This document shows positions 26,711-59,185 of a DNA stretch of 64,000 nt, piece by piece (the stretch's first letter is position 1; every line of letters starts with the position of its first letter). The stretch lies in the NCBI GenBank assembly GCA_000002435.2, contig CM018793.1, one strand, 5' to 3'. Under the pieces are notes generated by a model. That model saw only the letters and a list, made by a program, of their open reading frames with translations. It had not been told where the DNA came from and ran no database searches. This DNA is from Giardia intestinalis (Eukaryota). A program made the position numbers and the translations under genes.

Positions 26711-28039
26711 ATGGCGCCCAGGGCGTCGTCGCCGGCGGAGGCTCCCTCCTTCCCGTCTGTGTCCTCTGCGCTGCAGATGCTTGTGCGGCCGCCTGTTCCA
26801 GCGTCAACCGGCGGGCATGACCCCGGTGGGGCGAGTCGTCTCCGAGAGGGACGCAGAGCCTGCGACCTGCGTTCTAGGCTGGGCCTTCTTCTGGGCCAGG
26901 CTGACGCGATGTCGGGGAGAAGCCGAGTGGGCCCGGAGACGCACTGCGCAAGGCTCCACCAGCTTCTAGCGCGGCTCGCAAGGCTGCAGGAAACAGACCG
27001 CTTGCTGGACGCCATTGAGTGTTCGAGTGCCTGCATGGCACAGATCAGCGACCCGGCCTGCCTCCGGTGCCTTCTTCGCGCACACTCCGCCCTAAGCATA
27101 TCCCCGCCTCCGGCTGGCCGTGGCGTCTCTCTAGAGAGGCAGCGGCAGTGCATAGCGTCGTCCATCTGTGAGCACTTTTCAGCAGGAATCCGAGGGGCGC
27201 TGGACAGGATCCTTGCTTCGCGCCTCCGCGCCTGCCACGAGACGCGCGCTCAAGCGCATCTTACGAAGCCAGAGGCCTCCGACCAGCTGGCTAGCCTCCT
27301 GTCCGGCCTCCGTGTGGAGGATGCTGCCCCCATTTCGGCGCACTGGAGCGACCAGCTCTTCTACACGGCTCTCTGCCGCGAAGCAGCCGTTGTCTGCGAG
27401 TCCCTGTCTTCACTCGCCCTTTCGGTGTCGGAACAGGTTAGGCGCCGTATGCACCTGGGCGACAGCGGACCCTTGACTGCGCTGCTCCACGCCGCGAGGT
27501 CTTTCGTTTCTGCGTGCGAGCACGCCTTTTCTGTGTCCTTCCCGACTGGGCTGATGAGTGAGAGCGGAGAGGCAGGCCTTTTGCTGGGCGGGATCGAAGA
27601 GACGGGGCCCTACTTTTCTGCGCGATTGAAGCTGGCCCGGGCAAGGGGGCGGCCTCGTGTAATCGGGCGGCTGTTCGGTCGGTCCGCTGCGTCCCCCATC
27701 GAGGCATATGTAGAGCGTATTCGTCAAAACTTCAGCGGCCCTGCAGCATGGGCTCCCCCCTACCCAGAGCCGGGCCAGAGCCTTATGTCTGACAGCTCTG
27801 CTGCGAGGCGGTGGCACACTACCGGCGCAGGCCAGCTCTTCGTCGACTTCCTTGTTTTGTTTCTGGGGTCAATCTTTGATGCATTTACTCTCGGGGATCA
27901 GATTGCAACCTTCCCCTCTATAGGCCTGTATCTCAGCAACAATCCAGTGGCGGAGGAAGGCGGGCTATTCGCACGGGTCTTCGCTACATACTCAGGAATG
28001 GTTGCCAGTGAAGCAGGGAGTCTAAGGGCTATCGAGTAG
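26711..28039 (+). CDS. hypothetical protein (442 aa), GC-rich gene
   Basis: ATG preceded by an A/T-rich initiator (aaatcttaagtttATGG). The 3' third has normal Giardia-like composition. No domain recognised. The length could partly reflect GC-driven stop depletion. Confidence 0.4.
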   Translation: MAPRASSPAEAPSFPSVSSALQMLVRPPVPASTGGHDPGGASRLREGRRACDLRSRLGLLLGQADAMSGRSRVGPETHCARLHQLLARLARLQETDRLLDAIECSSACMAQISDPACLRCLLRAHSALSISPPPAGRGVSLERQRQCIASSICEHFSAGIRGALDRILASRLRACHETRAQAHLTKPEASDQLASLLSGLRVEDAAPISAHWSDQLFYTALCREAAVVCESLSSLALSVSEQVRRRMHLGDSGPLTALLHAARSFVSACEHAFSVSFPTGLMSESGEAGLLLGGIEETGPYFSARLKLARARGRPRVIGRLFGRSAASPIEAYVERIRQNFSGPAAWAPPYPEPGQSLMSDSSAARRWHTTGAGQLFVDFLVLFLGSIFDAFTLGDQIATFPSIGLYLSNNPVAEEGGLFARVFATYSGMVASEAGSLRAIE

Positions 28040-28229: not shown

Positions 28230-30227
28230 TCCACACCACAGCCTCTCTACTGATACCCCTGTTCGTGGTGAGCGCGCTTGCAGTAACCTGCCAGGCCGAT
28301 AAGTGCGAGACGGTCGGTAACACAGAGATCTGCACCCAGTGCAGGGCCGGGGCGTCCCGGTCGACGGCTTCTGCTGGCCCCCCGGCTTCCCCCAGGCCGC
28401 GGCAGCCGGGTGCACCGAGGAAGACGGGGTACCCTCGACAAGACGGCAGCCACCTGCGGGAAGTGCGGCGACGGGTACCTCCTCTTCATGGGCGGATGCT
28501 ACAAGACAGAGAGTCAGCCCGGCAGTGACATATGCACAGCAGCCAGTAACGGAGTATGCACTGAGTGTAATACAAAGAACGGCCTGTTCAAGAACCCTGC
28601 TACAGCACCAGAGAAAGGAAGGGAGTGCATACTCTGTCATGATGCCACGGGAGCAGATGGATATATGGGAGTCGAGGGCTGCGCTACATGTACAGCACCA
28701 ACTAATAATAAGGGGGCAGCCACGTGCACAGAGTGTCAAGATGGGTACTACAACGATGGTGGCGCATGTAAGAAGTGCGTTGATGGATGCATAGACTGCA
28801 CCGGTGCAAATCAATGCACAACATGTGAGGACGGGAAATACCTGAAGAATAATCAATGTGTAGATGCTGGTCAATGTGATCAAGGCACCTATGCAGACCC
28901 GACAACAGGCCAATGCAAGCCATGTGGAATAACTGACTGTGCCACCTGTGAGTACAATGCAACTATTAGTCAACCACAGTGTAAGACCTGCAGTACTAGT
29001 AGTAACAAGATGGTGAAGACAGCGGCAGACGGGACGACCACTTGTGTCGATGATGGTGGATGTACAAATGGCAATACGCACTTTGTTGAAGGTACTAACC
29101 AAAAGCTTTGTGTCCCATGTGGTGATACTACAAATGGTGGGGTTCTAGGTTGTAGTACTTGCTCCTCTAAAACTACATGTACAAAGTGCCTCGACGGATA
29201 CTACGATAGTGGTAGTGGTACGGTTACATGCACCGCTTGTCCAGGTGCTAACTGTGCCACCTGTGTTAAAGATACAAAAGACCAATGCACGACCTGTAAG
29301 CCTGGGTTCTTCTTGAAGGATAGCTCCTCTGGTGAGTGCATCTCATGTAGTGACAAAAACAATGGGGGCCACGAAGGGTGCAGTGCATGCTCTAGCAACG
29401 GTGCTTTCAAGTGCACTGACTGTAAGCCTAACTACAAAAAAGAGGGAACTTCAGACAACTATACATGTGTGAAGACTTGTGAGGACGAGACGGCTTGTGG
29501 TGGTACTTCTGGGGCCTGTGATGCAATAGTAATTGACGAGAATGGCAACACAAAGCATTATTGTTCATTCTGTGGGGAGAGTGGTAAGTTCCCTATAGAT
29601 GGTCTCTGTGCTAGTGACAAGGCTAATAATAATGGATGTGCCAATGGTGTCTGTACATCATGTACTGCTGCTAACTACTTCCTCTATATGGGTGGTTGTT
29701 ATAAGGTTAATACAGTACCAGGTAGTCATATGTGCAAGACAGCTAACAACGGTGTCTGTACAGCTGTTAGTGAGAACAATAAGTACTTCATAGTCCCAGG
29801 GGCATCCAATCAGAATCAGTCTGTACTAGCATGTGGTAACCCCCTAGGCACACTAGTAGATACTAAGGCATACGTGGGGGTCGAGGGCTGCTCTCAGTGT
29901 ACAGCCCCGACAGCTCTAACAACAGCTGGCATGACCGCTGCTGTGTGTACCTCCTGTGACAGTGATAGGAAGCCCAACAAGGATGGTACTGGGTGTGTGC
30001 TGTGCTCTGACACCAACTGCAAGAGCTGTGTGATGGACGGTGTGTGTGAGGAGTGCAACAGTGGCTTCAGCCTAGACAGCAGTGGGGCCTCCTGTGTGTC
30101 CTCTGGCGCCAACAGGAGCGGGCTCTCCACGGGGGCCATCGCGGGGATCTCCGTCGCCGTGGTCGTCGTCGTGGGGGGCCTCGTGGGCTTCTTGTGTTGG
30201 TGGTTTGTGTGTAGAGGGAAGGCGTAG
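28230..30227 (+). pseudogene. VSP family, array unit 1: full-length VSP body ending ..WWFVCRGKA, but the 5' end is degraded (no ATG before the signal-peptide-like segment, two frame shifts)
   Basis: A signal-peptide-like hydrophobic segment TASLLIPLFVVSALAVTCQADKCET.. lies in frame 2 (~28235-28320) with no ATG in front. The nearest upstream ATG (28130) would add a 37-aa GC-rich leader. Reading continues in frame 1 (GVPVDGFCWPPGFPQAAAAGCTEEDGV, from ~28345) and then in frame 0 from ~28430. Frame 0 holds the 605-codon body ORF 28410..30227 with CxxC repeats, GGCY, TM helix and CRGKA. Confidence 0.6.
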
Positions 30228-30237
30228 GTACTTAGGT

Positions 30238-30244
30238 AGTGAAT
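30238..30244 (+). promoter_or_regulatory. Giardia-type poly(A) signal AGTGAAT (AGTRAAY) ~11 nt after the VSP stop codon; recurs in every unit
   Basis: Sequence gcgTAGgtacttaggtAGTGAATgc. The same motif sits at +1835 steps (32073, 33908, 35743, 37578, 39413). AGTAAAT after the peroxiredoxin stop and AGTAAAC after the HCMP stop (44303) fit the same consensus. Confidence 0.55.
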
Positions 30245-30295
30245 GCTATGAGTGATGATAATGGGTGATAGTGGGTGATAGTATGATAGTGGAGT

Positions 30296-32062
30296 GTGAT
30301 ATGCACAACAGCCAGTAACGGAGTATGCACTGCTTGTAATACAGCTAACGGCCTGTTCAAGAACCCAGCTACAGCACCGAAGTCTGGTAGTGAGTGCATC
30401 CTGTGCTGGGATACCAAGGGAGCAGATGGATATACGGGGGTGGCTAACTGCGCCACATGTACGGCACCAGCTAGTAGTCCAGGACCTGCCACGTGTACTG
30501 AGTGCAAGGCTGGGTACGTTACGAAGGACAGTGCATGTGAGAAGTGCCAAGGGAACTGTGCCACCTGTGAGACTGAGGCGACCCACTGTACCTCTTGTAA
30601 GGGAAATACGTTCCTGAAGACTGATACTAACACTTGCGTAGAGGCTGGTCAATGCACTGGAAATAAGTACCCCGACCCAAGCACCGGCAAGTGCACAGCT
30701 TGTAACGCTCAAGAAGTGGGGATAGATGGATGCGACACATGTGAGTATGATACGACGCTGCAGAAGCCGAAGTGCCTGACCTGTACTGGTAAGATAGTCA
30801 AGGAAGAGGCCGACGGGACGACCACCTGCATTGCTGAGGGGGCTTGTACCCAAAACGGGAACGATGGTCCGAACTTTCTAACTGAACCGAACAAAAAGTG
30901 CATTCTCTGCAATAACACTGCAGATTCAACCCCTGGCAATACAGGTGTTCTTGGTTGTAGCACATGCTCTAAAGCTAATTCTGGTACAAATCCTCAGTGC
31001 AAGACATGCCTCGACGGATACTACAATAGCGCAAATAGTGGTAGTGGTACCGCTACATGCACAGTCTGTGGCGAGAATTGCGCCACCTGCACTCAAGCTG
31101 GCAATAATCAGTGTACTAAATGCAAGCCTGGATTCTTCATGAAAGGCAGTGGTCCTACTGGTGAGTGCCTTCCTTGTGATAATGCACAGGAGGGCATCGA
31201 TGGGTGTGCTGAGTGCACTGGTCCTGCAGGGTCCCTCAAGTGTACTAAGTGCAAGCCTAACAGGAAGCCCGTTGGAACCTCAGACAACTATACATGCACA
31301 GAGAAGACCTGCGAGGATACAACGGCTTGTGGGGGTACCTCTGGTGCCTGTGATGCCATGATAATAGATGATAAGGGCAATGCAAAGCACTACTGTTCCT
31401 ACTGTGGGGATAGTACTAAGTTCCCCATTGATGGACTATGTGTCAGTACTGGTAGCAATGCAAATGGTAATACTTGTACCAGTCATACATGTACATCATG
31501 TGCTGCTAACTACTTCCTCTATATGAACGGCTGTTATAGTGTATCAGCTCAACCTGGCAACTACATGTGCAAGAAAGCAGATAATAATGGGATATGCACA
31601 GAGGCGGCCAACAATAAGTACTTCATAGTCCCAGGGGCATCCAATCAGAATCAGTCTGTACTAGCATGTGGTAACCCCCTAGGCACACTAGTAGATACTA
31701 AGGCATACGTGGGGGTCGAGGGCTGCTCTCAGTGTACAGCCCCGACAGCTCTAACAACAGCTGGCATGACCGCTGCTGTGTGTACCTCCTGTGACAGTGA
31801 TAGGAAGCCCAACAAGGATGGTACTGGGTGTGTGCTGTGCTCTGACACCAACTGCAAGAGCTGTGTGATGGACGGTGTGTGTGAGGAGTGCAACAGTGGC
31901 TTCAGCCTAGACAGCAGTGGGGCCTCCTGTGTGTCCTCTGGCGCCAACAGGAGCGGGCTCTCCACGGGGGCCATCGCGGGGATCTCCGTCGCCGTGGTCG
32001 TCGTCGTGGGGGGCCTCGTGGGCTTCTTGTGTTGGTGGTTTGTGTGTAGAGGGAAGGCGTAG
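30296..32062 (+). CDS. VSP-family cassette, array unit 2 (588 codons; ectodomain+TM+CRGKA; lacks start codon context and signal peptide)
   Basis: The ORF begins MICTTASNGVCTACNT, about 100 codons into a VSP, directly after the 68-bp spacer. Many CxxC pairs, YFLYMNGCY. Ends GISVAVVVVVGGLVGFLCWWFVCRGKA, then TAG and AGTGAAT. Unique variants: CEDTT, NNTAD. Confidence 0.8.
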   Translation: MICTTASNGVCTACNTANGLFKNPATAPKSGSECILCWDTKGADGYTGVANCATCTAPASSPGPATCTECKAGYVTKDSACEKCQGNCATCETEATHCTSCKGNTFLKTDTNTCVEAGQCTGNKYPDPSTGKCTACNAQEVGIDGCDTCEYDTTLQKPKCLTCTGKIVKEEADGTTTCIAEGACTQNGNDGPNFLTEPNKKCILCNNTADSTPGNTGVLGCSTCSKANSGTNPQCKTCLDGYYNSANSGSGTATCTVCGENCATCTQAGNNQCTKCKPGFFMKGSGPTGECLPCDNAQEGIDGCAECTGPAGSLKCTKCKPNRKPVGTSDNYTCTEKTCEDTTACGGTSGACDAMIIDDKGNAKHYCSYCGDSTKFPIDGLCVSTGSNANGNTCTSHTCTSCAANYFLYMNGCYSVSAQPGNYMCKKADNNGICTEAANNKYFIVPGASNQNQSVLACGNPLGTLVDTKAYVGVEGCSQCTAPTALTTAGMTAAVCTSCDSDRKPNKDGTGCVLCSDTNCKSCVMDGVCEECNSGFSLDSSGASCVSSGANRSGLSTGAIAGISVAVVVVVGGLVGFLCWWFVCRGKA

Positions 32063-32130
32063 GTACTTAGGTAGTGAATGCTATGAGTGATGATAATGGG
32101 TGATAGTGGGTGATAGTATGATAGTGGAGT

Positions 32131-33897
32131 GTGATATGCACAACAGCCAGTAACGGAGTATGCACTGCTTGTAATACAGCTAACGGCCTGTTCAAGAACC
32201 CAGCTACAGCACCGAAGTCTGGTAGTGAGTGCATCCTGTGCTGGGATACCAAGGGAGCAGATGGATATACGGGGGTGGCTAACTGCGCCACATGTACGGC
32301 ACCAGCTAGTAGTCCAGGACCTGCCACGTGTACTGAGTGCAAGGCTGGGTACGTTACGAAGGACAGTGCATGTGAGAAGTGCCAAGGGAACTGTGCCACC
32401 TGTGAGACTGAGGCGACCCACTGTACCTCTTGTAAGGGAAATACGTTCCTGAAGACTGATACTAACACTTGCGTAGAGGCTGGTCAATGCACTGGAAATA
32501 AGTACCCCGACCCAAGCACCGGCAAGTGCACAGCTTGTAACGCTCAAGAAGTGGGGATAGATGGATGCGACACATGTGAGTATGATACGACGCTGCAGAA
32601 GCCGAAGTGCCTGACCTGTACTGGTAAGATAGTCAAGGAAGAGGCCGACGGGACGACCACCTGCATTGCTGAGGGGGCTTGTACCCAAAACGGGAACGAT
32701 GGTCCGAACTTTCTAACTGAACCGAACAAAAAGTGCATTCTCTGCAGTAATAATGTAGATTCAACCCCTGGCAATACAGGTGTTCTTGGTTGTAGCACAT
32801 GCTCTAAAGCTAATTCTGGTACAAATCCTCAGTGCAAGACATGCCTCGACGGATACTACAATAGCGCAAATAGTGGTAGTGGTACCGCTACATGCACAGT
32901 CTGTGGCGAGAATTGCGCCACCTGCACTCAAGCTGGCAATAATCAGTGTACTAAATGCAAGCCTGGATTCTTCATGAAAGGCAGTGGTCCTACTGGTGAG
33001 TGCCTTCCTTGTGATAATGCACAGGAGGGCATCGATGGGTGTGCTGAGTGCACTGGTCCTGCAGGGTCCCTCAAGTGTACTAAGTGCAAGCCTAACAGGA
33101 AGCCCGTTGGAACCTCAGACAACTATACATGCACAGAGAAGACCTGCGAGGATGAGACTGCGTGTGGGGGTACCTCTGGTGCCTGTGATGCCATGATAAT
33201 AGATGATAAGGGCAATGCAAAGCACTACTGTTCCTACTGTGGGGATAGTACTAAGTTCCCCATTGATGGACTATGTGTCAGTACTGGTAGCAATGCAAAT
33301 GGTAATACTTGTACCAGTCATACATGTACATCATGTGCTGCTAACTACTTCCTCTATATGAACGGCTGTTATAGTGTATCAGCTCAACCTGGCAACTACA
33401 TGTGCAAGAAAGCAGATAATAATGGGATATGCACAGAGGCGGCCAACAATAAGTACTTCATAGTCCCAGGGGCATCCAATCAGAATCAGTCTGTACTAGC
33501 ATGTGGTAACCCCCTAGGCACACTAGTAGATACTAAGGCATACGTGGGGGTCGAGGGCTGCTCTCAGTGTACAGCCCCGACAGCTCTAACAACAGCTGGC
33601 ATGACCGCTGCTGTGTGTACCTCCTGTGACAGTGATAGGAAGCCCAACAAGGATGGTACTGGGTGTGTGCTGTGCTCTGACACCAACTGCAAGAGCTGTG
33701 TGATGGACGGTGTGTGTGAGGAGTGCAACAGTGGCTTCAGCCTAGACAGCAGTGGGGCCTCCTGTGTGTCCTCTGGCGCCAACAGGAGCGGGCTCTCCAC
33801 GGGGGCCATCGCGGGGATCTCCGTCGCCGTGGTCGTCGTCGTGGGGGGCCTCGTGGGCTTCTTGTGTTGGTGGTTTGTGTGTAGAGGGAAGGCGTAG
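32131..33897 (+). CDS. VSP-family cassette, array unit 3 (signal-peptide-less)
   Basis: Over 99% identical to unit 2. Carries the SNNVD patch and CEDET. Same TM+CRGKA end. Confidence 0.8.
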   Translation: MICTTASNGVCTACNTANGLFKNPATAPKSGSECILCWDTKGADGYTGVANCATCTAPASSPGPATCTECKAGYVTKDSACEKCQGNCATCETEATHCTSCKGNTFLKTDTNTCVEAGQCTGNKYPDPSTGKCTACNAQEVGIDGCDTCEYDTTLQKPKCLTCTGKIVKEEADGTTTCIAEGACTQNGNDGPNFLTEPNKKCILCSNNVDSTPGNTGVLGCSTCSKANSGTNPQCKTCLDGYYNSANSGSGTATCTVCGENCATCTQAGNNQCTKCKPGFFMKGSGPTGECLPCDNAQEGIDGCAECTGPAGSLKCTKCKPNRKPVGTSDNYTCTEKTCEDETACGGTSGACDAMIIDDKGNAKHYCSYCGDSTKFPIDGLCVSTGSNANGNTCTSHTCTSCAANYFLYMNGCYSVSAQPGNYMCKKADNNGICTEAANNKYFIVPGASNQNQSVLACGNPLGTLVDTKAYVGVEGCSQCTAPTALTTAGMTAAVCTSCDSDRKPNKDGTGCVLCSDTNCKSCVMDGVCEECNSGFSLDSSGASCVSSGANRSGLSTGAIAGISVAVVVVVGGLVGFLCWWFVCRGKA

Positions 33898-33965
33898 GTA
33901 CTTAGGTAGTGAATGCTATGAGTGATGATAATGGGTGATAGTGGGTGATAGTATGATAGTGGAGT

Positions 33966-35732
33966 GTGATATGCACAACAGCCAGTAACGGAGTATGCAC
34001 TGCTTGTAATACAGCTAACGGCCTGTTCAAGAACCCAGCTACAGCACCGAAGTCTGGTAGTGAGTGCATCCTGTGCTGGGATACCAAGGGAGCAGATGGA
34101 TATACGGGGGTGGCTAACTGCGCCACATGTACGGCACCAGCTAGTAGTCCAGGACCTGCCACGTGTACTGAGTGCAAGGCTGGGTACGTTACGAAGGACA
34201 GTGCATGTGAGAAGTGCCAAGGGAACTGTGCCACCTGTGAGACTGAGGCGACCCACTGTACCTCTTGTAAGGGAAATACGTTCCTGAAGACTGATACTAA
34301 CACTTGCGTAGAGGCTGGTCAATGCACTGGAAATAAGTACCCCGACCCAAGCACCGGCAAGTGCACAGCTTGTAACGCTCAAGAAGTGGGGATAGATGGA
34401 TGCGACACATGTGAGTATGATACGACGCTGCAGAAGCCGAAGTGCCTGACCTGTACTGGTAAGATAGTCAAGGAAGAGGCCGACGGGACGACCACCTGCA
34501 TTGCTGAGGGGGCTTGTACCCAAAACGGGAACGATGGTCCGAACTTTCTAACTGAACCGAACAAAAAGTGCATTCTCTGCAATAACACTGCAGATTCAAC
34601 CCCTGGCAATACAGGTGTTCTTGGTTGTAGCACATGCTCTAAAGCTAATTCTGGTACAAATCCTCAGTGCAAGACATGCCTCGACGGATACTACAATAGC
34701 GCAAATAGTGGTAGTGGTACCGCTACATGCACAGTCTGTGGCGAGAATTGCGCCACCTGCACTCAAGCTGGCAATAATCAGTGTACTAAATGCAAGCCTG
34801 GATTCTTCATGAAAGGCAGTGGTCCTACTGGTGAGTGCCTTCCTTGTGATAATGCACAGGAGGGCATCGATGGATGTGCTGAGTGCACTGGTCCTGCAGG
34901 ATCCCTCAAGTGTACAAAGTGCAAGCCTAACAGGAAGCCCGTTGGAACCTCAGACAACTATACATGCACAGAGAAGACCTGCGAGGATGAGACTGCGTGT
35001 GGGGGTACCTCTGGTGCCTGTGATGCCATGATAATAGATGATAAGGGCAATGCAAAGCACTACTGTTCCTACTGTGGGGATAGTACTAAGTTCCCCATTG
35101 ATGGACTATGTGTCAGTACTGGTAGCAATGCAAATGGTAATACTTGTACCAGTCATACATGTACATCATGTGCTGCTAACTACTTCCTCTATATGAACGG
35201 CTGTTATAGTGTATCAGCTCAACCTGGCAACTACATGTGCAAGAAAGCAGATAATAATGGGATATGCACAGAGGCGGCCAACAATAAGTACTTCATAGTC
35301 CCAGGGGCATCCAATCAGAATCAGTCTGTACTAGCATGTGGTAACCCCCTAGGCACACTAGTAGATACTAAGGCATACGTGGGGGTCGAGGGCTGCTCTC
35401 AGTGTACAGCCCCGACAGCTCTAACAACAGCTGGCATGACCGCTGCTGTGTGTACCTCCTGTGACAGTGATAGGAAGCCCAACAAGGATGGTACTGGGTG
35501 TGTGCTGTGCTCTGACACCAACTGCAAGAGCTGTGTGATGGACGGTGTGTGTGAGGAGTGCAACAGTGGCTTCAGCCTAGACAGCAGTGGGGCCTCCTGT
35601 GTGTCCTCTGGCGCCAACAGGAGCGGGCTCTCCACGGGGGCCATCGCGGGGATCTCCGTCGCCGTGGTCGTCGTCGTGGGGGGCCTCGTGGGCTTCTTGT
35701 GTTGGTGGTTTGTGTGTAGAGGGAAGGCGTAG
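33966..35732 (+). CDS. VSP-family cassette, array unit 4 (signal-peptide-less)
   Basis: Near-identical unit: NNTAD patch, CEDET, and the second synonymous-SNP haplotype around unit position ~920. Confidence 0.8.
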   Translation: MICTTASNGVCTACNTANGLFKNPATAPKSGSECILCWDTKGADGYTGVANCATCTAPASSPGPATCTECKAGYVTKDSACEKCQGNCATCETEATHCTSCKGNTFLKTDTNTCVEAGQCTGNKYPDPSTGKCTACNAQEVGIDGCDTCEYDTTLQKPKCLTCTGKIVKEEADGTTTCIAEGACTQNGNDGPNFLTEPNKKCILCNNTADSTPGNTGVLGCSTCSKANSGTNPQCKTCLDGYYNSANSGSGTATCTVCGENCATCTQAGNNQCTKCKPGFFMKGSGPTGECLPCDNAQEGIDGCAECTGPAGSLKCTKCKPNRKPVGTSDNYTCTEKTCEDETACGGTSGACDAMIIDDKGNAKHYCSYCGDSTKFPIDGLCVSTGSNANGNTCTSHTCTSCAANYFLYMNGCYSVSAQPGNYMCKKADNNGICTEAANNKYFIVPGASNQNQSVLACGNPLGTLVDTKAYVGVEGCSQCTAPTALTTAGMTAAVCTSCDSDRKPNKDGTGCVLCSDTNCKSCVMDGVCEECNSGFSLDSSGASCVSSGANRSGLSTGAIAGISVAVVVVVGGLVGFLCWWFVCRGKA

Positions 35733-35800
35733 GTACTTAGGTAGTGAATGCTATGAGTGATGATAATGGGTGATAGTGGGTGATAGTATGATAGTGGAGT

Positions 35801-37567
35801 GTGATATGCACAACAGCCAGTAACGGAGTATGCACTGCTTGTAATACAGCTAACGGCCTGTTCAAGAACCCAGCTACAGCACCGAAGTCTGGTAGTGAGT
35901 GCATCCTGTGCTGGGATACCAAGGGAGCAGATGGATATACGGGGGTGGCTAACTGCGCCACATGTACGGCACCAGCTAGTAGTCCAGGACCTGCCACGTG
36001 TACTGAGTGCAAGGCTGGGTACGTTACGAAGGACAGTGCATGTGAGAAGTGCCAAGGGAACTGTGCCACCTGTGAGACTGAGGCGACCCACTGTACCTCT
36101 TGTAAGGGAAATACGTTCCTGAAGACTGATACTAACACTTGCGTAGAGGCTGGTCAATGCACTGGAAATAAGTACCCCGACCCAAGCACCGGCAAGTGCA
36201 CAGCTTGTAACGCTCAAGAAGTGGGGATAGATGGATGCGACACATGTGAGTATGATACGACGCTGCAGAAGCCGAAGTGCCTGACCTGTACTGGTAAGAT
36301 AGTCAAGGAAGAGGCCGACGGGACGACCACCTGCATTGCTGAGGGGGCTTGTACCCAAAACGGGAACGATGGTCCGAACTTTCTAACTGAACCGAACAAA
36401 AAGTGCATTCTCTGCAATAACACTGCAGATTCAACCCCTGGCAATACAGGTGTTCTTGGTTGTAGCACATGCTCTAAAGCTAATTCTGGTACAAATCCTC
36501 AGTGCAAGACATGCCTCGACGGATACTACAATAGCGCAAATAGTGGTAGTGGTACCGCTACATGCACAGTCTGTGGCGAGAATTGCGCCACCTGCACTCA
36601 AGCTGGCAATAATCAGTGTACTAAATGCAAGCCTGGATTCTTCATGAAAGGCAGTGGTCCTACTGGTGAGTGCCTTCCTTGTGATAATGCACAGGAGGGC
36701 ATCGATGGATGTGCTGAGTGCACTGGTCCTGCAGGATCCCTCAAGTGTACAAAGTGCAAGCCTAACAGGAAGCCCGTTGGAACCTCAGACAACTATACAT
36801 GCACAGAGAAGACCTGCGAGGATGAGACTGCGTGTGGGGGTACCTCTGGTGCCTGTGATGCCATGATAATAGATGATAAGGGCAATGCAAAGCACTACTG
36901 TTCCTACTGTGGGGATAGTACTAAGTTCCCCATTGATGGACTATGTGTCAGTACTGGTAGCAATGCAAATGGTAATACTTGTACCAGTCATACATGTACA
37001 TCATGTGCTGCTAACTACTTCCTCTATATGAACGGCTGTTATAGTGTATCAGCTCAACCTGGCAACTACATGTGCAAGAAAGCAGATAATAATGGGATAT
37101 GCACAGAGGCGGCCAACAATAAGTACTTCATAGTCCCAGGGGCATCCAATCAGAATCAGTCTGTACTAGCATGTGGTAACCCCCTAGGCACACTAGTAGA
37201 TACTAAGGCATACGTGGGGGTCGAGGGCTGCTCTCAGTGTACAGCCCCGACAGCTCTAACAACAGCTGGCATGACCGCTGCTGTGTGTACCTCCTGTGAC
37301 AGTGATAGGAAGCCCAACAAGGATGGTACTGGGTGTGTGCTGTGCTCTGACACCAACTGCAAGAGCTGTGTGATGGACGGTGTGTGTGAGGAGTGCAACA
37401 GTGGCTTCAGCCTAGACAGCAGTGGGGCCTCCTGTGTGTCCTCTGGCGCCAACAGGAGCGGGCTCTCCACGGGGGCCATCGCGGGGATCTCCGTCGCCGT
37501 GGTCGTCGTCGTGGGGGGCCTCGTGGGCTTCTTGTGTTGGTGGTTTGTGTGTAGAGGGAAGGCGTAG
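35801..37567 (+). CDS. VSP-family cassette, array unit 5 (signal-peptide-less)
   Basis: Indistinguishable from unit 4 at the protein level. Confidence 0.8.
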   Translation: MICTTASNGVCTACNTANGLFKNPATAPKSGSECILCWDTKGADGYTGVANCATCTAPASSPGPATCTECKAGYVTKDSACEKCQGNCATCETEATHCTSCKGNTFLKTDTNTCVEAGQCTGNKYPDPSTGKCTACNAQEVGIDGCDTCEYDTTLQKPKCLTCTGKIVKEEADGTTTCIAEGACTQNGNDGPNFLTEPNKKCILCNNTADSTPGNTGVLGCSTCSKANSGTNPQCKTCLDGYYNSANSGSGTATCTVCGENCATCTQAGNNQCTKCKPGFFMKGSGPTGECLPCDNAQEGIDGCAECTGPAGSLKCTKCKPNRKPVGTSDNYTCTEKTCEDETACGGTSGACDAMIIDDKGNAKHYCSYCGDSTKFPIDGLCVSTGSNANGNTCTSHTCTSCAANYFLYMNGCYSVSAQPGNYMCKKADNNGICTEAANNKYFIVPGASNQNQSVLACGNPLGTLVDTKAYVGVEGCSQCTAPTALTTAGMTAAVCTSCDSDRKPNKDGTGCVLCSDTNCKSCVMDGVCEECNSGFSLDSSGASCVSSGANRSGLSTGAIAGISVAVVVVVGGLVGFLCWWFVCRGKA

Positions 37568-37635
37568 GTACTTAGGTAGTGAATGCTATGAGTGATGATA
37601 ATGGGTGATAGTGGGTGATAGTATGATAGTGGAGT

Positions 37636-39402
37636 GTGATATGCACAACAGCCAGTAACGGAGTATGCACTGCTTGTAATACAGCTAACGGCCTGTTCAA
37701 GAACCCAGCTACAGCACCGAAGTCTGGTAGTGAGTGCATCCTGTGCTGGGATACCAAGGGAGCAGATGGATATACGGGGGTGGCTAACTGCGCCACATGT
37801 ACGGCACCAGCTAGTAGTCCAGGACCTGCCACGTGTACTGAGTGCAAGGCTGGGTACGTTACGAAGGACAGTGCATGTGAGAAGTGCCAAGGGAACTGTG
37901 CCACCTGTGAGACTGAGGCGACCCACTGTACCTCTTGTAAGGGAAATACGTTCCTGAAGACTGATACTAACACTTGCGTAGAGGCTGGTCAATGCACTGG
38001 AAATAAGTACCCCGACCCAAGCACCGGCAAGTGCACAGCTTGTAACGCTCAAGAAGTGGGGATAGATGGATGCGACACATGTGAGTATGATACGACGCTG
38101 CAGAAGCCGAAGTGCCTGACCTGTACTGGTAAGATAGTCAAGGAAGAGGCCGACGGGACGACCACCTGCATTGCTGAGGGGGCTTGTACCCAAAACGGGA
38201 ACGATGGTCCGAACTTTCTAACTGAACCGAACAAAAAGTGCATTCTCTGCAGTAATAATGTAGATTCAACCCCTGGCAATACAGGTGTTCTTGGTTGTAG
38301 CACATGCTCTAAAGCTAATTCTGGTACAAATCCTCAGTGCAAGACATGCCTCGACGGATACTACAATAGCGCAAATAGTGGTAGTGGTACCGCTACATGC
38401 ACAGTCTGTGGCGAGAATTGCGCCACCTGCACTCAAGCTGGCAATAATCAGTGTACTAAATGCAAGCCTGGATTCTTCATGAAAGGCAGTGGTCCTACTG
38501 GTGAGTGCCTTCCTTGTGATAATGCACAGGAGGGCATCGATGGATGTGCTGAGTGCACTGGTCCTGCAGGATCCCTCAAGTGTACAAAGTGCAAGCCTAA
38601 CAGGAAGCCCGTTGGAACCTCAGACAACTATACATGCACAGAGAAGACCTGCGAGGATGAGACTGCGTGTGGGGGTACCTCTGGTGCCTGTGATGCCATG
38701 ATAATAGATGATAAGGGCAATGCAAAGCACTACTGTTCCTACTGTGGGGATAGTACTAAGTTCCCCATTGATGGACTATGTGTCAGTACTGGTAGCAATG
38801 CAAATGGTAATACTTGTACCAGTCATACATGTACATCATGTGCTGCTAACTACTTCCTCTATATGAACGGCTGTTATAGTGTATCAGCTCAACCTGGCAA
38901 CTACATGTGCAAGAAAGCAGATAATAATGGGATATGCACAGAGGCGGCCAACAATAAGTACTTCATAGTCCCAGGGGCATCCAATCAGAATCAGTCTGTA
39001 CTAGCATGTGGTAACCCCCTAGGCACACTAGTAGATACTAAGGCATACGTGGGGGTCGAGGGCTGCTCTCAGTGTACAGCCCCGACAGCTCTAACAACAG
39101 CTGGCATGACCGCTGCTGTGTGTACCTCCTGTGACAGTGATAGGAAGCCCAACAAGGATGGTACTGGGTGTGTGCTGTGCTCTGACACCAACTGCAAGAG
39201 CTGTGTGATGGACGGTGTGTGTGAGGAGTGCAACAGTGGCTTCAGCCTAGACAGCAGTGGGGCCTCCTGTGTGTCCTCTGGCGCCAACAGGAGCGGGCTC
39301 TCCACGGGGGCCATCGCGGGGATCTCCGTCGCCGTGGTCGTCGTCGTGGGGGGCCTCGTGGGCTTCTTGTGTTGGTGGTTTGTGTGTAGAGGGAAGGCGT
39401 AG
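37636..39402 (+). CDS. VSP-family cassette, array unit 6 (signal-peptide-less)
   Basis: Unit-4-type background but carrying the SNNVD patch seen in unit 3. Confidence 0.8.
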   Translation: MICTTASNGVCTACNTANGLFKNPATAPKSGSECILCWDTKGADGYTGVANCATCTAPASSPGPATCTECKAGYVTKDSACEKCQGNCATCETEATHCTSCKGNTFLKTDTNTCVEAGQCTGNKYPDPSTGKCTACNAQEVGIDGCDTCEYDTTLQKPKCLTCTGKIVKEEADGTTTCIAEGACTQNGNDGPNFLTEPNKKCILCSNNVDSTPGNTGVLGCSTCSKANSGTNPQCKTCLDGYYNSANSGSGTATCTVCGENCATCTQAGNNQCTKCKPGFFMKGSGPTGECLPCDNAQEGIDGCAECTGPAGSLKCTKCKPNRKPVGTSDNYTCTEKTCEDETACGGTSGACDAMIIDDKGNAKHYCSYCGDSTKFPIDGLCVSTGSNANGNTCTSHTCTSCAANYFLYMNGCYSVSAQPGNYMCKKADNNGICTEAANNKYFIVPGASNQNQSVLACGNPLGTLVDTKAYVGVEGCSQCTAPTALTTAGMTAAVCTSCDSDRKPNKDGTGCVLCSDTNCKSCVMDGVCEECNSGFSLDSSGASCVSSGANRSGLSTGAIAGISVAVVVVVGGLVGFLCWWFVCRGKA

Positions 39403-39470
39403 GTACTTAGGTAGTGAATGCTATGAGTGATGATAATGGGTGATAGTGGGTGATAGTATGATAGTGGAGT

Positions 39471-41186
39471 GTGATATGCACAACAGCCAGTAACGGAGTA
39501 TGCACTGCTTGTAATACAGCTAACGGCCTGTTCAAGAACCCAGCTACAGCACCGAAGTCTGGTAGTGAGTGCATCCTGTGCTGGGATACCAAGGGAGCAG
39601 ATGGATATACGGGGGTGGCTAACTGCGCCACATGTACGGCACCAGCTAGTAGTCCAGGACCTGCCACGTGTACTGAGTGCAAGGCTGGGTACGTTACGAA
39701 GGACAGTGCATGTGAGAAGTGCCAAGGGAACTGTGCCACCTGTGAGACTGAGGCGACCCACTGTACCTCTTGTAAGGGAAATACGTTCCTGAAGACTGAT
39801 ACTAACACTTGCGTAGAGGCTGGTCAATGCACTGGAAATAAGTACCCCGACCCAAGCACCGGCAAGTGCACAGCTTGTAACGCTCAAGAAGTGGGGATAG
39901 ATGGATGCGACACATGTGAGTATGATACGACGCTGCAGAAGCCGAAGTGCCTGACCTGTACTGGTAAGATAGTCAAGGAAGAGGCCGACGGGACGACCAC
40001 CTGCATTGCTGAGGGGGCTTGTACCCAAAACGGGAACGATGGTCCGAACTTTCTAACTGAACCGAACAAAAAGTGCATTCTCTGCAATAACACTGCAGAT
40101 TCAACCCCTGGCAATACAGGTGTTCTTGGTTGTAGCACATGCTCTAAAGCTAATTCTGGTACAAATCCTCAGTGCAAGACATGCCTCGACGGATACTACA
40201 ATAGCGCAAATAGTGGTAGTGGTACCGCTACATGCACAGTCTGTGGCGAGAATTGCGCCACCTGCACTCAAGCTGGCAATAATCAGTGTACTAAATGCAA
40301 GCCTGGATTCTTCATGAAAGGCAGTGGTCCTACTGGTGAGTGCCTTCCTTGTGATAATGCACAGGAGGGCATCGATGGATGTGCTGAGTGCACTGGTCCT
40401 GCAGGATCCCTCAAGTGTACAAAGTGCAAGCCTAACAGGAAGCCCGTTGGAACCTCAGACAACTATACATGCACAGAGAAGACCTGCGAGGATGAGACTG
40501 CGTGTGGGGGTACCTCTGGTGCCTGTGATGCCATGATAATAGATGATAAGGGCAATGCAAAGCACTACTGTTCCTACTGTGGGGATAGTACTAAGTTCCC
40601 CATTGATGGACTATGTGTCAGTACTGGTAGCAATGCAAATGGTAATACTTGTACCAGTCATACATGTACATCATGTGCTGCTAACTACTTCCTCTATATG
40701 AACGGCTGTTATAGTGTATCAGCTCAACCTGGCAACTACATGTGCAAGAAAGCAGATAATAATGGGATATGCACAGAGGCGGCCAACAATAAGTACTTCA
40801 TAGTCCCAGGGGCATCCAATCAGAATCAGTCTGTACTAGCATGTGGTAACCCCCTAGGCACACTAGTAGATACTAAGGCATACGTGGGGGTCGAGGGCTG
40901 CTCTCAGTGTACAGCCCCGACAGCTCTAACAACAGCTGGCATGACCGCTGCTGTGTGTACCTCTTGTGGTGAGAGTAAGAAGCCCAACAAGGATGGCACT
41001 GGGTGTGTGCTGTGCTCTGTGGGTGATTGCAAGAGCTGTGTGATGGATAATATATGTGGGGAGTGCAACAGTGGCTTCAGCATAGACAATGGTAAGTGCG
41101 TGTCCTCTGGCAGTAATAGGAGCGGGCTCTCCACGGGGGCCATCGCGGGGATCTCCGTGGCTGGTCTCGTTGGGCTTCTGTGTTAG
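39471..41186 (+). CDS. VSP-family cassette, array unit 7: divergent 3' end, truncated TM segment, no CRGKA tail
   Basis: Identical to unit 4 until ~40950. It then diverges (CTSCGESKKPNKDGTGCVLCSVGDCKSCVMDNICGECNSGFSIDNGKCVSSGSNRSGLSTGAIAGISVAGLVGLLC*). The array ends here and runs into GC-rich DNA. Confidence 0.7.
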   Translation: MICTTASNGVCTACNTANGLFKNPATAPKSGSECILCWDTKGADGYTGVANCATCTAPASSPGPATCTECKAGYVTKDSACEKCQGNCATCETEATHCTSCKGNTFLKTDTNTCVEAGQCTGNKYPDPSTGKCTACNAQEVGIDGCDTCEYDTTLQKPKCLTCTGKIVKEEADGTTTCIAEGACTQNGNDGPNFLTEPNKKCILCNNTADSTPGNTGVLGCSTCSKANSGTNPQCKTCLDGYYNSANSGSGTATCTVCGENCATCTQAGNNQCTKCKPGFFMKGSGPTGECLPCDNAQEGIDGCAECTGPAGSLKCTKCKPNRKPVGTSDNYTCTEKTCEDETACGGTSGACDAMIIDDKGNAKHYCSYCGDSTKFPIDGLCVSTGSNANGNTCTSHTCTSCAANYFLYMNGCYSVSAQPGNYMCKKADNNGICTEAANNKYFIVPGASNQNQSVLACGNPLGTLVDTKAYVGVEGCSQCTAPTALTTAGMTAAVCTSCGESKKPNKDGTGCVLCSVGDCKSCVMDNICGECNSGFSIDNGKCVSSGSNRSGLSTGAIAGISVAGLVGLLC

Positions 41187-41804: not shown

Positions 41805-44303
41805 ATGAGGGTTCTCATCCTTCTTCTTCTGCACGGTATTTTCTCAGAGTGCACCCAGGACAGCGACTGCGGGGGTGCGACCGGCGTCTGCAACGTCACG
41901 ATCGGCGGCAAGAAGTACTGCTCCAAGTGCGACGGAGCGCGGGTCCCCGTCAACGGAGACTGCAGGCTGCTGAGCCTCTCGCGGGGTATATGCATAGTGC
42001 CCACGGGCAGCAACCCCACTCCGGGCTCCTGCTCGGGCTGCATCCGGGACTTCCTCTTCTACAGGGGCGGGTGCTACCGCACGGCATCCCTGATCAACGC
42101 CATATGCAAGGAGAAGCACGTCGTCGAGGAGGGGATGTACTGCGGGGCGTGCGCCATCGAGGGCGACGTCCCGATCGACGGGGTGTGCGTGCCGGCTGGG
42201 AGTGCTGCAGGAAACACGTGCGACAAGGGCGTGTGCACAACATGCACAGGCGGCTACTTCCTCCACTACGGGTCGTGCTACAAGTTTGATAGTTCTCCCG
42301 GCAGCATTGTGTGTCCTAATCAAGCTGACACCACTGGCTCTGTCTGCGGCTCTTGCGGATCGAAGTTCGTCAAGAACCCCAGTGCGAGCTCGTCTGCCAC
42401 CTCCTGCCTCGCGTGCTACGGGCTGGACGGGACCCTCTTCTGCGAGCGCTGCCGGATGAACGTGCTCACGGGCGCAGATGTGAAGCCTACCCTCTGCACG
42501 CAGTGCAAAATAGGCTACGTGCCCGTCGACGGCCGGTGCCTCTCCAACTACTCCGCCCTGGCCGCGCTCGCCGGGTGCTCCGACCCCCGGGGCAACGGGC
42601 TCTGCGACGCGTGCTCCTCCGGCTTCATGCTCTTCTACGGGAGCTGCTACTCCGTCGACGGCCCCCTCGCCCAGGCCATCTGCGCGGCCGAGGACCAGAT
42701 CTACGTCAACGGCCGGGTGCTCTGCAAGAGGTGCGCCCAGCCCGACCACTACCCCCTGAACGGCGTCTGCATCGGCCAGAGCTCGGACGGGACCGACGGA
42801 CACACGTGCAGCGGCGGGTCGTGCACGGTCTGCAGCACCAAACAGACCGCAGACAATACCCCCGAGTTCTTCCTGTTCTACAGCGGCTGCTACGACATCA
42901 CCCACCCCATCGGGAAGTCGATCTGCTCCGCTGTAGCTGATGGCGCCTGCACAGCATGCGCGTCCTCGGACTCCTCGAGTGTGATAACCATCACTGCAGA
43001 TGGCCAGTCATCCAAGTGCCTCGCCTGCTGGGACGACACGGTGGGGGGAGTAGCCAACTGCGGGGGCTGCTCGCTCGCCAGTGATGGCCCCGCCAAGGTT
43101 GTGTGCACCAGGTGCTCGGACTCGACGGAGCCCGGCGAGGATGGCGCGTGCCCCCGAGCCCTCCCGCCCGCAACGCCCGAAGGGTGCGCCGTCCAGGGCT
43201 GCCAGGCGTGCTCGAAGGACTCTGCCACGACGTGCGACGCCTGCTTCGAGCCTCTCATCATGAAGGAGGACAAGACGAAGTGCTTCGGGAGCTGCCTGGC
43301 GCTGGGCCCGGGCTACTACAACGCCAGCGGGGCCTGTGCGCGCTGCGTGGAGAACTGTCTCTCCTGCGTAGACGGGACCTCGTGCTCCCGGTGCGCAGAC
43401 GGGTACTACCTCGAGGTGTCCGGCAGCGACTCCTCAACGGGGGCGTGCAGGCCGTGTGCCGCCGGGTGCTCAACGTGTAATGACGGCAGTAGCGCAGGTT
43501 GCACGACGTGTCTCCTCGGATACTACATCGCGGCCGAGGGAAAAAGGCAACCTGGGCAGTGTGTGAAGTGTGACTCTAGTATAGGCGGTTACATGGGCGT
43601 CCAACACTGCATTGTCTGCCGCAGCACCGTGGGGGACGGGGGAGCCAAGAACGTCGTCTGCCAGAAGTGCGAGGACGGGTATCTCAAGGAGACGGACCAG
43701 GGCAAGACCGTCTGCGAGGCGCCCCCGCCCACATGCACCGTGGAGCTGTGCGCTCTGTGCGTGGCCGACGACCCCAATAGATGCGAGCACTGCACGGCCG
43801 GCGCGTACCTCTGCCCGCGGACGGCGACGTGCACGAAGGACTGCGCCAGCTGCGGCGGCTCGATGTACCCCGACGAGGACCTCGGGGAGTGCCAGCCGTG
43901 CGACATCGCGAACTGCCGGGTCTGCGCGACGGGGCTCAAGTGCGAGAGCTGCGCGGAGAGCGCCGTCCCCATCTCCCCGGACGTCTACCACACGGCGTGC
44001 ATGGGCTGCAGCGACACCGGGGGCATGGACGGCTGGGTGGGCCTCGCGGGGTGCACGACCTGCGAGCTGACCGACAAGGGCGGCGGGAGCGTCAACTGCC
44101 TCGACCCTGGCTACTACCGGCGGGGCGGGCTCGGCGGGGGAGCAATCGCCGCCATCGTCATCGTCGTCCTCCTCGTCCTGGCCGTCGCCGGCTTCCTCGT
44201 CTGGTGGTTCGTCTTCAGGAGGGGCGGCCGGCCCAAGCGCGGGGCGAAGTACACGTCGCTCACGCGGGGCGAGTCCTACGACTACCGCCAGTCCCTGATA
44301 TGA
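41805..44303 (+). CDS. high-cysteine membrane protein (HCMP; VSP-like ectodomain, non-VSP cytoplasmic tail)
   Basis: ATG followed by signal peptide MRVLILLLLHGIFSEC. 832 aa with abundant CxxC and GGCY-type motifs (FYRGGCYRT, LHYGSCYKF, LFYGSCYSV, FYSGCYDI). TM helix AIAAIVIVVLLVLAVAGFLVWWFVF. ~30-aa basic tail (RRGGRPKRGAKYTSLTRGESYDYRQSLI) instead of CRGKA. GC-rich codon usage. Confidence 0.85.
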   Translation: MRVLILLLLHGIFSECTQDSDCGGATGVCNVTIGGKKYCSKCDGARVPVNGDCRLLSLSRGICIVPTGSNPTPGSCSGCIRDFLFYRGGCYRTASLINAICKEKHVVEEGMYCGACAIEGDVPIDGVCVPAGSAAGNTCDKGVCTTCTGGYFLHYGSCYKFDSSPGSIVCPNQADTTGSVCGSCGSKFVKNPSASSSATSCLACYGLDGTLFCERCRMNVLTGADVKPTLCTQCKIGYVPVDGRCLSNYSALAALAGCSDPRGNGLCDACSSGFMLFYGSCYSVDGPLAQAICAAEDQIYVNGRVLCKRCAQPDHYPLNGVCIGQSSDGTDGHTCSGGSCTVCSTKQTADNTPEFFLFYSGCYDITHPIGKSICSAVADGACTACASSDSSSVITITADGQSSKCLACWDDTVGGVANCGGCSLASDGPAKVVCTRCSDSTEPGEDGACPRALPPATPEGCAVQGCQACSKDSATTCDACFEPLIMKEDKTKCFGSCLALGPGYYNASGACARCVENCLSCVDGTSCSRCADGYYLEVSGSDSSTGACRPCAAGCSTCNDGSSAGCTTCLLGYYIAAEGKRQPGQCVKCDSSIGGYMGVQHCIVCRSTVGDGGAKNVVCQKCEDGYLKETDQGKTVCEAPPPTCTVELCALCVADDPNRCEHCTAGAYLCPRTATCTKDCASCGGSMYPDEDLGECQPCDIANCRVCATGLKCESCAESAVPISPDVYHTACMGCSDTGGMDGWVGLAGCTTCELTDKGGGSVNCLDPGYYRRGGLGGGAIAAIVIVVLLVLAVAGFLVWWFVFRRGGRPKRGAKYTSLTRGESYDYRQSLI

Positions 44304-59111: not shown

Positions 59112-59185
59112 GGTCCGATAGTGTAGCTGGTTAGCACGTTCGCTTGACGTGCGAGAGGTCCGGAGTTCGAGTCTCCGTCGGATCA
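59112..59185 (+). tRNA. tRNA-Val, anticodon read as GAC
   Basis: GGTCCGATAGTGTAGCTGGTTAGCACGTTCGCTTGACGTGCGAGAGGTCCGGAGTTCGAGTCTCCGTCGGATCA folds as a cloverleaf. Acceptor GGTCCGA/TCGGATC (one G-U pair). D loop with GG. Anticodon stem TTCGC/GCGAG, loop TTGACGT (U33, GAC, G37). 5-nt variable loop. T stem CGGAG/CTCCG with loop TTCGAGT. Discriminator A. Near-identical in architecture to metazoan tRNA-Val(AAC). Coordinates are accurate to +/-1. Confidence 0.85.

Follow-up and report, generated by a model that had tools for sequence, protein, structure and literature searches.

Patchwork variation in a tandem array of VSP pseudogenes of Giardia intestinalis and the exchange between units that it requires

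How do tandem gene copies that are otherwise almost indistinguishable come to carry the same short variant in units that do not lie next to each other? This question is raised by an array of variant-specific surface protein (VSP) pseudogenes (psiVSPs) in a 64,000-nucleotide stretch of Giardia intestinalis DNA (contig CM018793.1 of GenBank assembly GCA_000002435.2), here called the window, whose numbering is used throughout. The array and its flanks belong to G. intestinalis WB, and the contig, which comes from the PacBio reference assembly, is taken to be chromosome 5. A first reading of the letters, referred to below as the original prediction, had described a mosaic of variant patches at positions 30296 to 41186 and attributed it to repeated gene conversion or unequal crossing-over between neighboring cassettes. 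The answer that we favor, with a probability of about 0.7, is that the psiVSP array was built by unequal exchange and then acquired patchwork variation, in which one patch, encoding SNNV, reached its present distribution by exchange within the array.

The array comprises seven head-to-tail units, all on the plus strand and separated by 68-bp spacers, and a repeat search combined with direct comparison revealed seven in-register copies with a tandem period of exactly 1835 bp. Units 2 to 7 were compared base by base over 1561 positions, ending where the tail of unit 7 diverges, and this revealed only 12 variable positions, which fall into three clusters. Pairwise identity ranged from 99.2 to 100%, in keeping with the predicted value of more than 99%, and units 4, 5, and 7 were identical over the whole comparison. 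The three clusters, with coordinates in unit 2, are as follows.

30912, 30916, 30918, and 30921, plus strand: site 1, A, C, C, C in units 2, 4, 5, and 7 (NNTA) and G, T, A, T in units 3 and 6 (SNNV).
31204, 31231, and 31246, plus strand: site 2, G, G, T in units 2 and 3 and A, A, A in units 4 to 7, all synonymous.
31319-31321, 31324, and 31327, plus strand: site 3, ACA ACG GCT in unit 2 only (TTA) and GAG ACT GCG in units 3 to 7 (ETA).

Site 1, described at first as an 11-nt patch, consists of four substitutions spanning 10 nt (30912..30921) in codons 206 to 209, with its equivalents at steps of +1835, and it divides the units exactly as had been proposed. Site 2 lies 283 nt downstream of site 1 and consists of three third-position changes within 43 nt; the predicted synonymous split between units 2-3 and units 4-7 was confirmed, the actual span being 31204 to 31246. 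Site 3 comprises five changes in 9 nt within the conserved motif CED-x-TACGG, where unit 2 alone has ACA at codon 342, and the assignment of CEDTTACGG to unit 2 and of CEDETACGG to units 3 to 7 was likewise correct. Not a single isolated point difference was found among units 2 to 7 in the more than 9,000 other aligned bases. Of the 11 intervals that separate neighboring variants, nine measured 27 nt or less, a degree of crowding that was reached in none of 200,000 simulations with 12 uniformly placed sites (P < 5e-6). These data showed that the variants are clustered far beyond chance.

The alleles carried by each unit are given below, with site 1 scored as A (NNTA) or B (SNNV).

30296-32062, plus strand: unit 2, psiVSP open reading frame (ORF) of 588 codons, with 26 CXXC motifs, a transmembrane (TM) segment, and a CRGKA tail.
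32131-33897, plus strand: unit 3, psiVSP; site 1 is B (SNNV, 32747-32756), site 2 is G,G,T (33039, 33066, 33081), and site 3 is the common allele.
33966-35732, plus strand: unit 4, psiVSP; site 1 is A and site 2 is A,A,A.
35801-37567, plus strand: unit 5, psiVSP identical to unit 4.
37636-39402, plus strand: unit 6, psiVSP; site 1 is B (38252-38261) on a site 2 of A,A,A, the recombinant combination.
39471-41186, plus strand: unit 7, terminal psiVSP, the same as unit 4 up to 40963 and then with a tail of its own.

When the four-gamete test was applied to sites 1 and 2, with the alleles of site 2 scored as G (units 2 and 3) or a (units 4 to 7), all four haplotypes were present, namely, unit 2 (A,G), unit 3 (B,G), unit 4 (A,a), and unit 6 (B,a). 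For site 1 against site 3 and for site 2 against site 3, three haplotypes each were found, which is compatible with a tree, and the minimum number of recombination events is one. Whole-unit duplications combined with patches of single origin cannot yield four haplotypes; therefore, at least one exchange between units is required, whether by gene conversion or by unequal crossing-over. The SNNV patch does sit on both site 2 backgrounds (units 3 and 6), as predicted, and the incompatibility of sites 1 and 2 means that the variation is not strictly nested. The broader claim that the three sites sort independently holds for sites 1 and 2 but is overstated for the other two pairs, which are nested, site 3 being a singleton; likewise, an exchange between units is needed, as had been argued, but a single event suffices and the conversion need not have been repeated. 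Recurrent mutation, in which the same 4-base change would have struck twice at a hypermutable spot, might be entertained in that sites 1 and 3 occupy positions that vary across the family. It would, however, demand four identical substitutions within 10 nt on two occasions, while more than 9,000 aligned bases stayed free of any isolated change, and we regard it as scarcely credible.

The structure of the array indicates how it may have arisen. When each base was compared with the one 1835 positions further on, identity, a few positions excepted, was unbroken between 29775 and 40963. The repeat proper consists of 6 × 1835 bp plus an overhang of 179 bp, i.e., 6.1 copies in about 11.2 kb. The overhang at the start, 29775-29953 in unit 1, is identical to 40785-40963 in unit 7, and both array boundaries are sharp. 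Tandem Repeats Finder, run with a longest period of 500, below the 1835-bp unit, detected no array. The elements that frame units 2 to 7 are as follows.

28243-30227, plus strand: unit 1, the head VSP pseudogene (PF03302, E = 4.5e-45), delineated by three-frame translations and by alignment with relatives from isolate DH and locus L002.
29775-40963, plus strand: the tandem repeat proper, 6 × 1835 bp + 179 bp.
30228-30295, plus strand: the 68-bp spacer, recurring at steps of +1835 up to 39403-39470.

In unit 1, a signal-peptide remnant (LLIPLFVVSALAVTCQADKCE) begins near 28243, followed by a long ORF (28410-30227) with a CRGKA end. Its identity to the other units, measured in 100-nt windows, is about 50 to 80% as far as 29774 and 100% from 29775 onward. 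Beyond 40963, unit 7 continues in a tail of its own that shares about 80% identity with the other units. In this tail, 18 nt of the TM segment are deleted, and a TGG codon of the CWW motif has become the stop TAG (41184-41186). VSP homology ends at this point, and neither CRGKA nor a poly(A) signal is present in this unit. Truncation at CWW is of the same kind as that noted for other Giardia Cys-rich pseudogenes.

The sharp boundaries and the 179-bp overhang are therefore read as the footprint of unequal exchange between two neighboring paralogues. Two adjacent paralogous psiVSPs would have had in common a stretch of some 179 bp within the 3′ half, and unequal homologous exchange in this stretch would have generated a hybrid unit composed of the 3′ tail of gene A, the spacer, and the 5′ body of gene B, which later unequal exchanges may have amplified to 6.1 copies. 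This amplification was probably recent, since the copies are free of any isolated point substitution. The patches would then represent one or two templated events, or clusters of events, each at spots that vary across the family, rather than accumulated point mutations.

The SNNV patch would be accounted for most economically by one gene conversion between units 3 and 6, short and without crossover. The converted tract would have a length of no less than 10 nt and no more than about 1.7 kb, with site 2 as its downstream limit and site 3 of the unit before as its upstream one. The same arrangement might have resulted from two to four successive unequal crossovers. Unequal crossing-over alone, through misaligned sister-chromatid crossovers with one breakpoint in the 283 nt between sites 1 and 2, draws on a process by which the array was clearly built, as the 179-bp overhang attests, and the order of site 1 alleles along the array (A-B-A-A-B-A) has the three-unit period that block duplication gives. 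Duplication of a three-unit block, however, predicts the order G,G,a,G,G,a at site 2, where G-G-a-a-a-a was observed, and two B units stand three apart in 3 of the 15 possible arrangements, so that the periodicity is not significant; on both counts, we rejected a three-unit higher-order repeat as the explanation of the site 1 pattern. In addition, where one conversion suffices, crossing-over would have had to take place a minimum of two to four times, with the breakpoints at specific positions. We consider crossing-over alone a possible but rather unlikely source of the pattern.

An exchange partner outside the array was also sought. No donor for the patches was found elsewhere in the window (allowing up to 3 mismatches) or in four related loci. 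Only 1 of 120 related proteins, protein P0001 of isolate DH, contained a peptide related to that of site 1 (SNNADS), and its gene was ruled out as the donor, as its DNA is intermediate between the two alleles. A gene with CEDTTACGG (P15) was ruled out as the donor of site 3 on account of its different codons; the same peptide occurs in WB protein P0023 as well. Conversion of unit 2 by unit 1 at site 3 was also discarded, since the run shared by the two units is only 11 nt and a shared ancestral state fits better.

To polarize the changes, unit 1 and a DH-isolate paralogue (L001; 77% identical overall) served as outgroups. At site 2, the state of units 2 and 3 matches the DH paralogue at 3 of 3 positions and unit 1 at 2 of 3, and because of these matches the A,A,A state of units 4 to 7 is probably the derived one. 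At positions 31324 and 31327, unit 2 retains the outgroup state (ACG GCT), and units 3 to 7 share the derived ACT GCG. Sites 2 and 3 together form a nested gradient from the proximal edge of the array (unit 2, then unit 3, then units 4 to 7), and the SNNV patch alone breaks the nesting; such a gradient is commonly seen at the edges of arrays under concerted evolution. The DH paralogue has G,C,A,C (SNNA) at site 1, two steps from either allele, in a stretch that is 94% identical to the array. Among the relatives scanned, position x of the CED-x-TACGG motif was occupied by E (37 cases), P (31), D (27, with every CEDD… variant counted), S (4), or T (2). Given this variability at position x and the intermediate state of site 1 in DH, the patches lie at spots that vary family-wide, and as they also involve several bases each, we infer that they were templated by diverged paralogues.

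Such templating could in principle account for the shared patch as well, if units 3 and 6 had each received SNNV on their own from a diverged VSP paralogue at another place in the genome. Multi-base patches fit short-tract conversion from a diverged donor, a paralogue with the related intermediate SNNA in a 94%-identical stretch exists in DH, and recombination among vsp genes is documented. Against two independent ectopic conversions stand the failure to find a donor and the need for the same tract to land twice, and we judge them highly improbable. A single transfer between units of the array remains the preferred explanation.

Whether the patches are real and correctly placed depends on the assembly, which was produced from PacBio RS II reads with HGAP3 and Quiver at 200x (3.6 Gb in 411,835 reads with a mean of about 8.7 kb, compared with a repeat of 11.2 kb). 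Typical PacBio consensus errors are homopolymer indels. The differences among the units are frame-preserving multi-base substitutions, and the alleles of sites 1 and 2 are each present in at least two units; for these reasons, the variants look real and unlike PacBio consensus noise. To this extent, the argument of the original prediction that the differences speak against an artefact stands; the assignment of patches to units, however, rests on a single assembly, and it could suffer from mis-registration of reads or from blending of homologues. The corresponding alternative is that the variants are real but the unit assignment or copy number is wrong, so that the apparent recombinant exists on no single chromosome. 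This may come about through mis-registered reads lying wholly inside the 11.2-kb repeat or through a consensus that merges slightly different arrays, the organism being a binucleate tetraploid with four copies of its genome. It gains weight from the mean read length of about 8.7 kb on the RS II platform, with no short-read polishing of the array, from the higher allelic variation in reads around VSPs that the assembly authors themselves raised, from a DH short-read assembly that breaks at both array flanks, and from the lack of an independent copy of the unit in any collection searched. It loses weight in that coverage is 200x, with the longer reads expected to reach into unique flanking sequence, in that the variants help to keep the reads in register, in that the authors found the assembly to agree with optical maps, and in that the alleles of sites 1 and 2 are cleanly called in at least two units each. 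On balance, an assembly or consensus artefact is unlikely.

The searches for an independent copy covered proteins and DNA. In a collection of 15 billion proteins, none was more than 67% identical to the proteins from the units, whether the whole unit, residues 185 to 360, or residues 1 to 205 were used, and exact look-ups of eight ORF versions in the protein collection all returned nothing. Scans of metagenome DNA for the unit gave no match, and a look-up of the flank gene yielded only a 3.7-kb Logan contig that ends before the array. More than 100 Logan contigs carry flanking single-copy genes identical to those of WB, yet no called protein or fragment exceeded 67% identity to the unit, which may reflect either a collapsed repeat in short-read assemblies or samples that do not have the array. 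Identity within the array is 99.2 to 100%, versus at most 77% to the closest relative found.

Several points weigh against the history proposed here. Only one pair of sites is incompatible, and the case for exchange depends on one patch placed in two units, a placement derived from one long-read consensus whose mean read is shorter than the array. Conversion and unequal crossing-over are indistinguishable from a single array. As no donor was found, templating by paralogues is unproven. The polarity of sites 2 and 3 is tentative, since the outgroups are distant (DH, 77% overall and 47 to 59% around site 2).

To what kind of locus does this history belong? The units match the VSP family of Pfam (PF03302) with E values from 1.8e-34 to 4.5e-45, contain 26 to 27 CXXC motifs, and have a Cys content of 12%. 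The C terminus of units 1 to 6 (...GGLVGFLCWWFVCRGKA*) combines a TM segment with CRGKA, a feature that unit 7 lacks, its TM segment being truncated and followed by the premature TAG. PyAatgTT is the VSP initiator (Adam et al. 2010, PMC2996952), and no copy of it was found on either strand between 28 and 46 kb of the window. In units 2 to 7, the ORF is directly preceded by an in-frame TAG, no in-frame ATG occurs before that of codon 282, and there is no signal peptide. In unit 1, other sequence stands in place of the ATG and initiator, and the loss of one nucleotide near 28349 and of another near 28430 puts the unit out of frame with its intact relatives. The initiator that unit 1 has lost is present as TAatgTT in its DH relative, and the same 5′ flank without an ATG recurs at locus L002 of an ENA isolate. 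None of the units has the ATG within PyAatgTT or the N-terminal signal peptide of a functional VSP. Without a usable start, signal peptide, or initiator, every unit is therefore a VSP pseudogene.

The spacers retain a poly(A) signal, AGTGAAT (30238-30244), which follows the CRGKA tail of units 1 to 6 at a distance of 11 nt, together with GGGTGATAGT-like repeats and an in-frame TAG (30287-30289), and they have no in-frame ATG. The spacer is homologous to that of an unrelated Giardia linear-array fragment (ENA contig L003, positions 1-100), in comparison with which about 66 nt are missing from the array units, among them the ATG of 'MGLLFIGGCYK...'. Judging from this alignment, linear-array junctions seem to share a common ancestral architecture. 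An example of a string specific to the present array is 'CILCSNNVDSTPG'.

Arrays of this kind have been described in Giardia, and the WB assembly as a whole counts 133 VSP and 208 psiVSP sequences. Adam et al. (2010, PMC2996952) reported linear vsp arrays with spacers of about 60 bp, in which the initiator (Inr) is missing from the downstream members, as is in many cases a usable ATG; they detected recombination among vsp genes with GENECONV and proposed that the downstream members may be cassettes or discarded genes. The WB array agrees with the psiVSP linear arrays of G. intestinalis (Adam et al. 2010, PMC2996952; Xu et al. 2020, PMC7000408; Lujan-lab preprint, 10.1101/2022.03.07.483299), which occur in the same genome, in every respect that we tested, and the following features are common to both: head-to-tail copies with short spacers; downstream members without Inr, signal peptide, or, in many published cases, start codon; a retained CRGKA tail and poly(A) signal; and an origin by duplication with recombination among the members. 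It differs in that published neighbors are diverged (the closest cited pair is 94% identical), whereas five and a half units here are 99.2 to 100% identical, and in that the head gene is dead as well.

The G. muris genome paper (Xu et al. 2020, PMC7641422) described psiVSP arrays that arose from duplication, one of them very recently, with recombination or gene conversion and no transcription. The G. muris arrays likewise consist of tandem VSP pseudogenes without signal peptides, and segmental gene conversion or recombination among them was suggested by their phylogeny. They lie mostly next to telomeres and end in a GCRGK tail, whereas the WB array has ordinary genes on both sides within the 64-kb window. 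Silence has been reported for the G. muris arrays only, which are essentially untranscribed; by likeness to them, the present locus is presumably a silent linear array of psiVSPs.

The behavior of the variants resembles that of tandem arrays under concerted evolution, such as those of rDNA, histone, and snRNA genes, which are kept nearly identical by unequal exchange and conversion, with edge units less homogenized and variants shared by non-adjacent units. Both the identity within the WB array and the sharing of a variant by non-adjacent units, incompatible with a duplication tree, conform to this pattern. Unlike those genes, psiVSP units are non-functional, and selection on dosage is not expected. 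Both the kind of array and the recombination process are already known from Giardia, and the unit-by-unit patch map, which we did not find in the literature examined, and the clean footprint of unequal crossing-over are new details rather than a new phenomenon. A population study from 2025 (PMC12669663) found VSPs to be enriched in gene-conversion tracts in assemblage A and regarded AI, the lineage of WB, as asexual, which fits mitotic conversion or sister-chromatid exchange at the array. The locus supports, without changing, what has been published on the recombinational activity of psiVSP arrays, here in a lineage reported as asexual (assemblage AI). It offers a clean, small example of psiVSP array evolution, in which the origin by unequal exchange can be read from the 179-bp overhang, and it would lend itself well, with long reads, to measuring how far WB clones differ through mitotic conversion and changes in copy number.

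Archives of silent cassettes are known from the vls locus of Borrelia, the VSG arrays and mosaic VSGs of Trypanosoma brucei, the MSG genes of Pneumocystis, and the msp2 pseudogenes of Anaplasma, and antigen switching in Giardia is attributed to epigenetic or post-transcriptional control. Like these archives (see also the discussion in PMC7641422), the WB array consists of tandem, promoterless, 5′-truncated antigen copies that remain open for reading, with exchange of short patches. It differs in that no linked expression site is evident. An expressed recipient with flanking homology was not found; within the window, unit 1, the head gene, is dead, and the nearest protein in the collection is only 67% identical. 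The resemblance is one of architecture only. That the array is a working donor archive from which short segments are copied into expressed VSP genes is an idea already floated as a hypothesis (Adam et al. 2010; Xu et al. 2020), and for this locus we consider it very unlikely. If true, the machinery that moved the SNNV patch between silent units would serve for such copying as well, and antigenic variation in Giardia, at present treated as purely epigenetic or post-transcriptional, would gain a mosaic-forming layer at the DNA level, as with vls and mosaic VSGs. The confinement of all variation to patches would then point to frequent micro-conversion throughout the VSP family.

Eight ORFs spread over the window match WB C6 proteins exactly, and two of them flank the array directly.

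26711-28039, plus strand: GC-rich ORF GL50803_00114445 (KAE8304796.1) on the left flank, hypothetical, 63% GC.
41805-44303, plus strand: high cysteine membrane protein group 3 (KAE8304798.1) on the right flank.

Both flanking ORFs have several near-identical copies in WB, located on their own large contig and on two others (1.49 and 2.76 Mb), and the array thus appears to lie inside a segmentally duplicated, GC-rich frame. Beyond the TAG of GL50803_00114445 (28037-28039), its reading frame meets no further stop before it has entered the signal-peptide remnant of unit 1. Downstream of the high cysteine membrane protein gene, a VSP-like ORF at 45198-46352 on the plus strand encodes 384 aa from a GTG start and matches Pfam VSP with an E value of 5e-32, with no exact match in the protein collection; it is probably a further Cys-rich pseudogene. 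Each unit is also accompanied by an antisense ORF of 319 aa with a TTG start that runs across the spacer (29894-30853, minus strand, and at steps of +1835). No Pfam match was obtained for these ORFs or for two neighboring minus-strand ORFs, and all of them are probably by-products of composition. Rfam and tRNA scans revealed no RNA genes in the array, and the only Rfam/ARAGORN match in the window was a tRNA-Val (GAC) at 59112-59186 on the plus strand.

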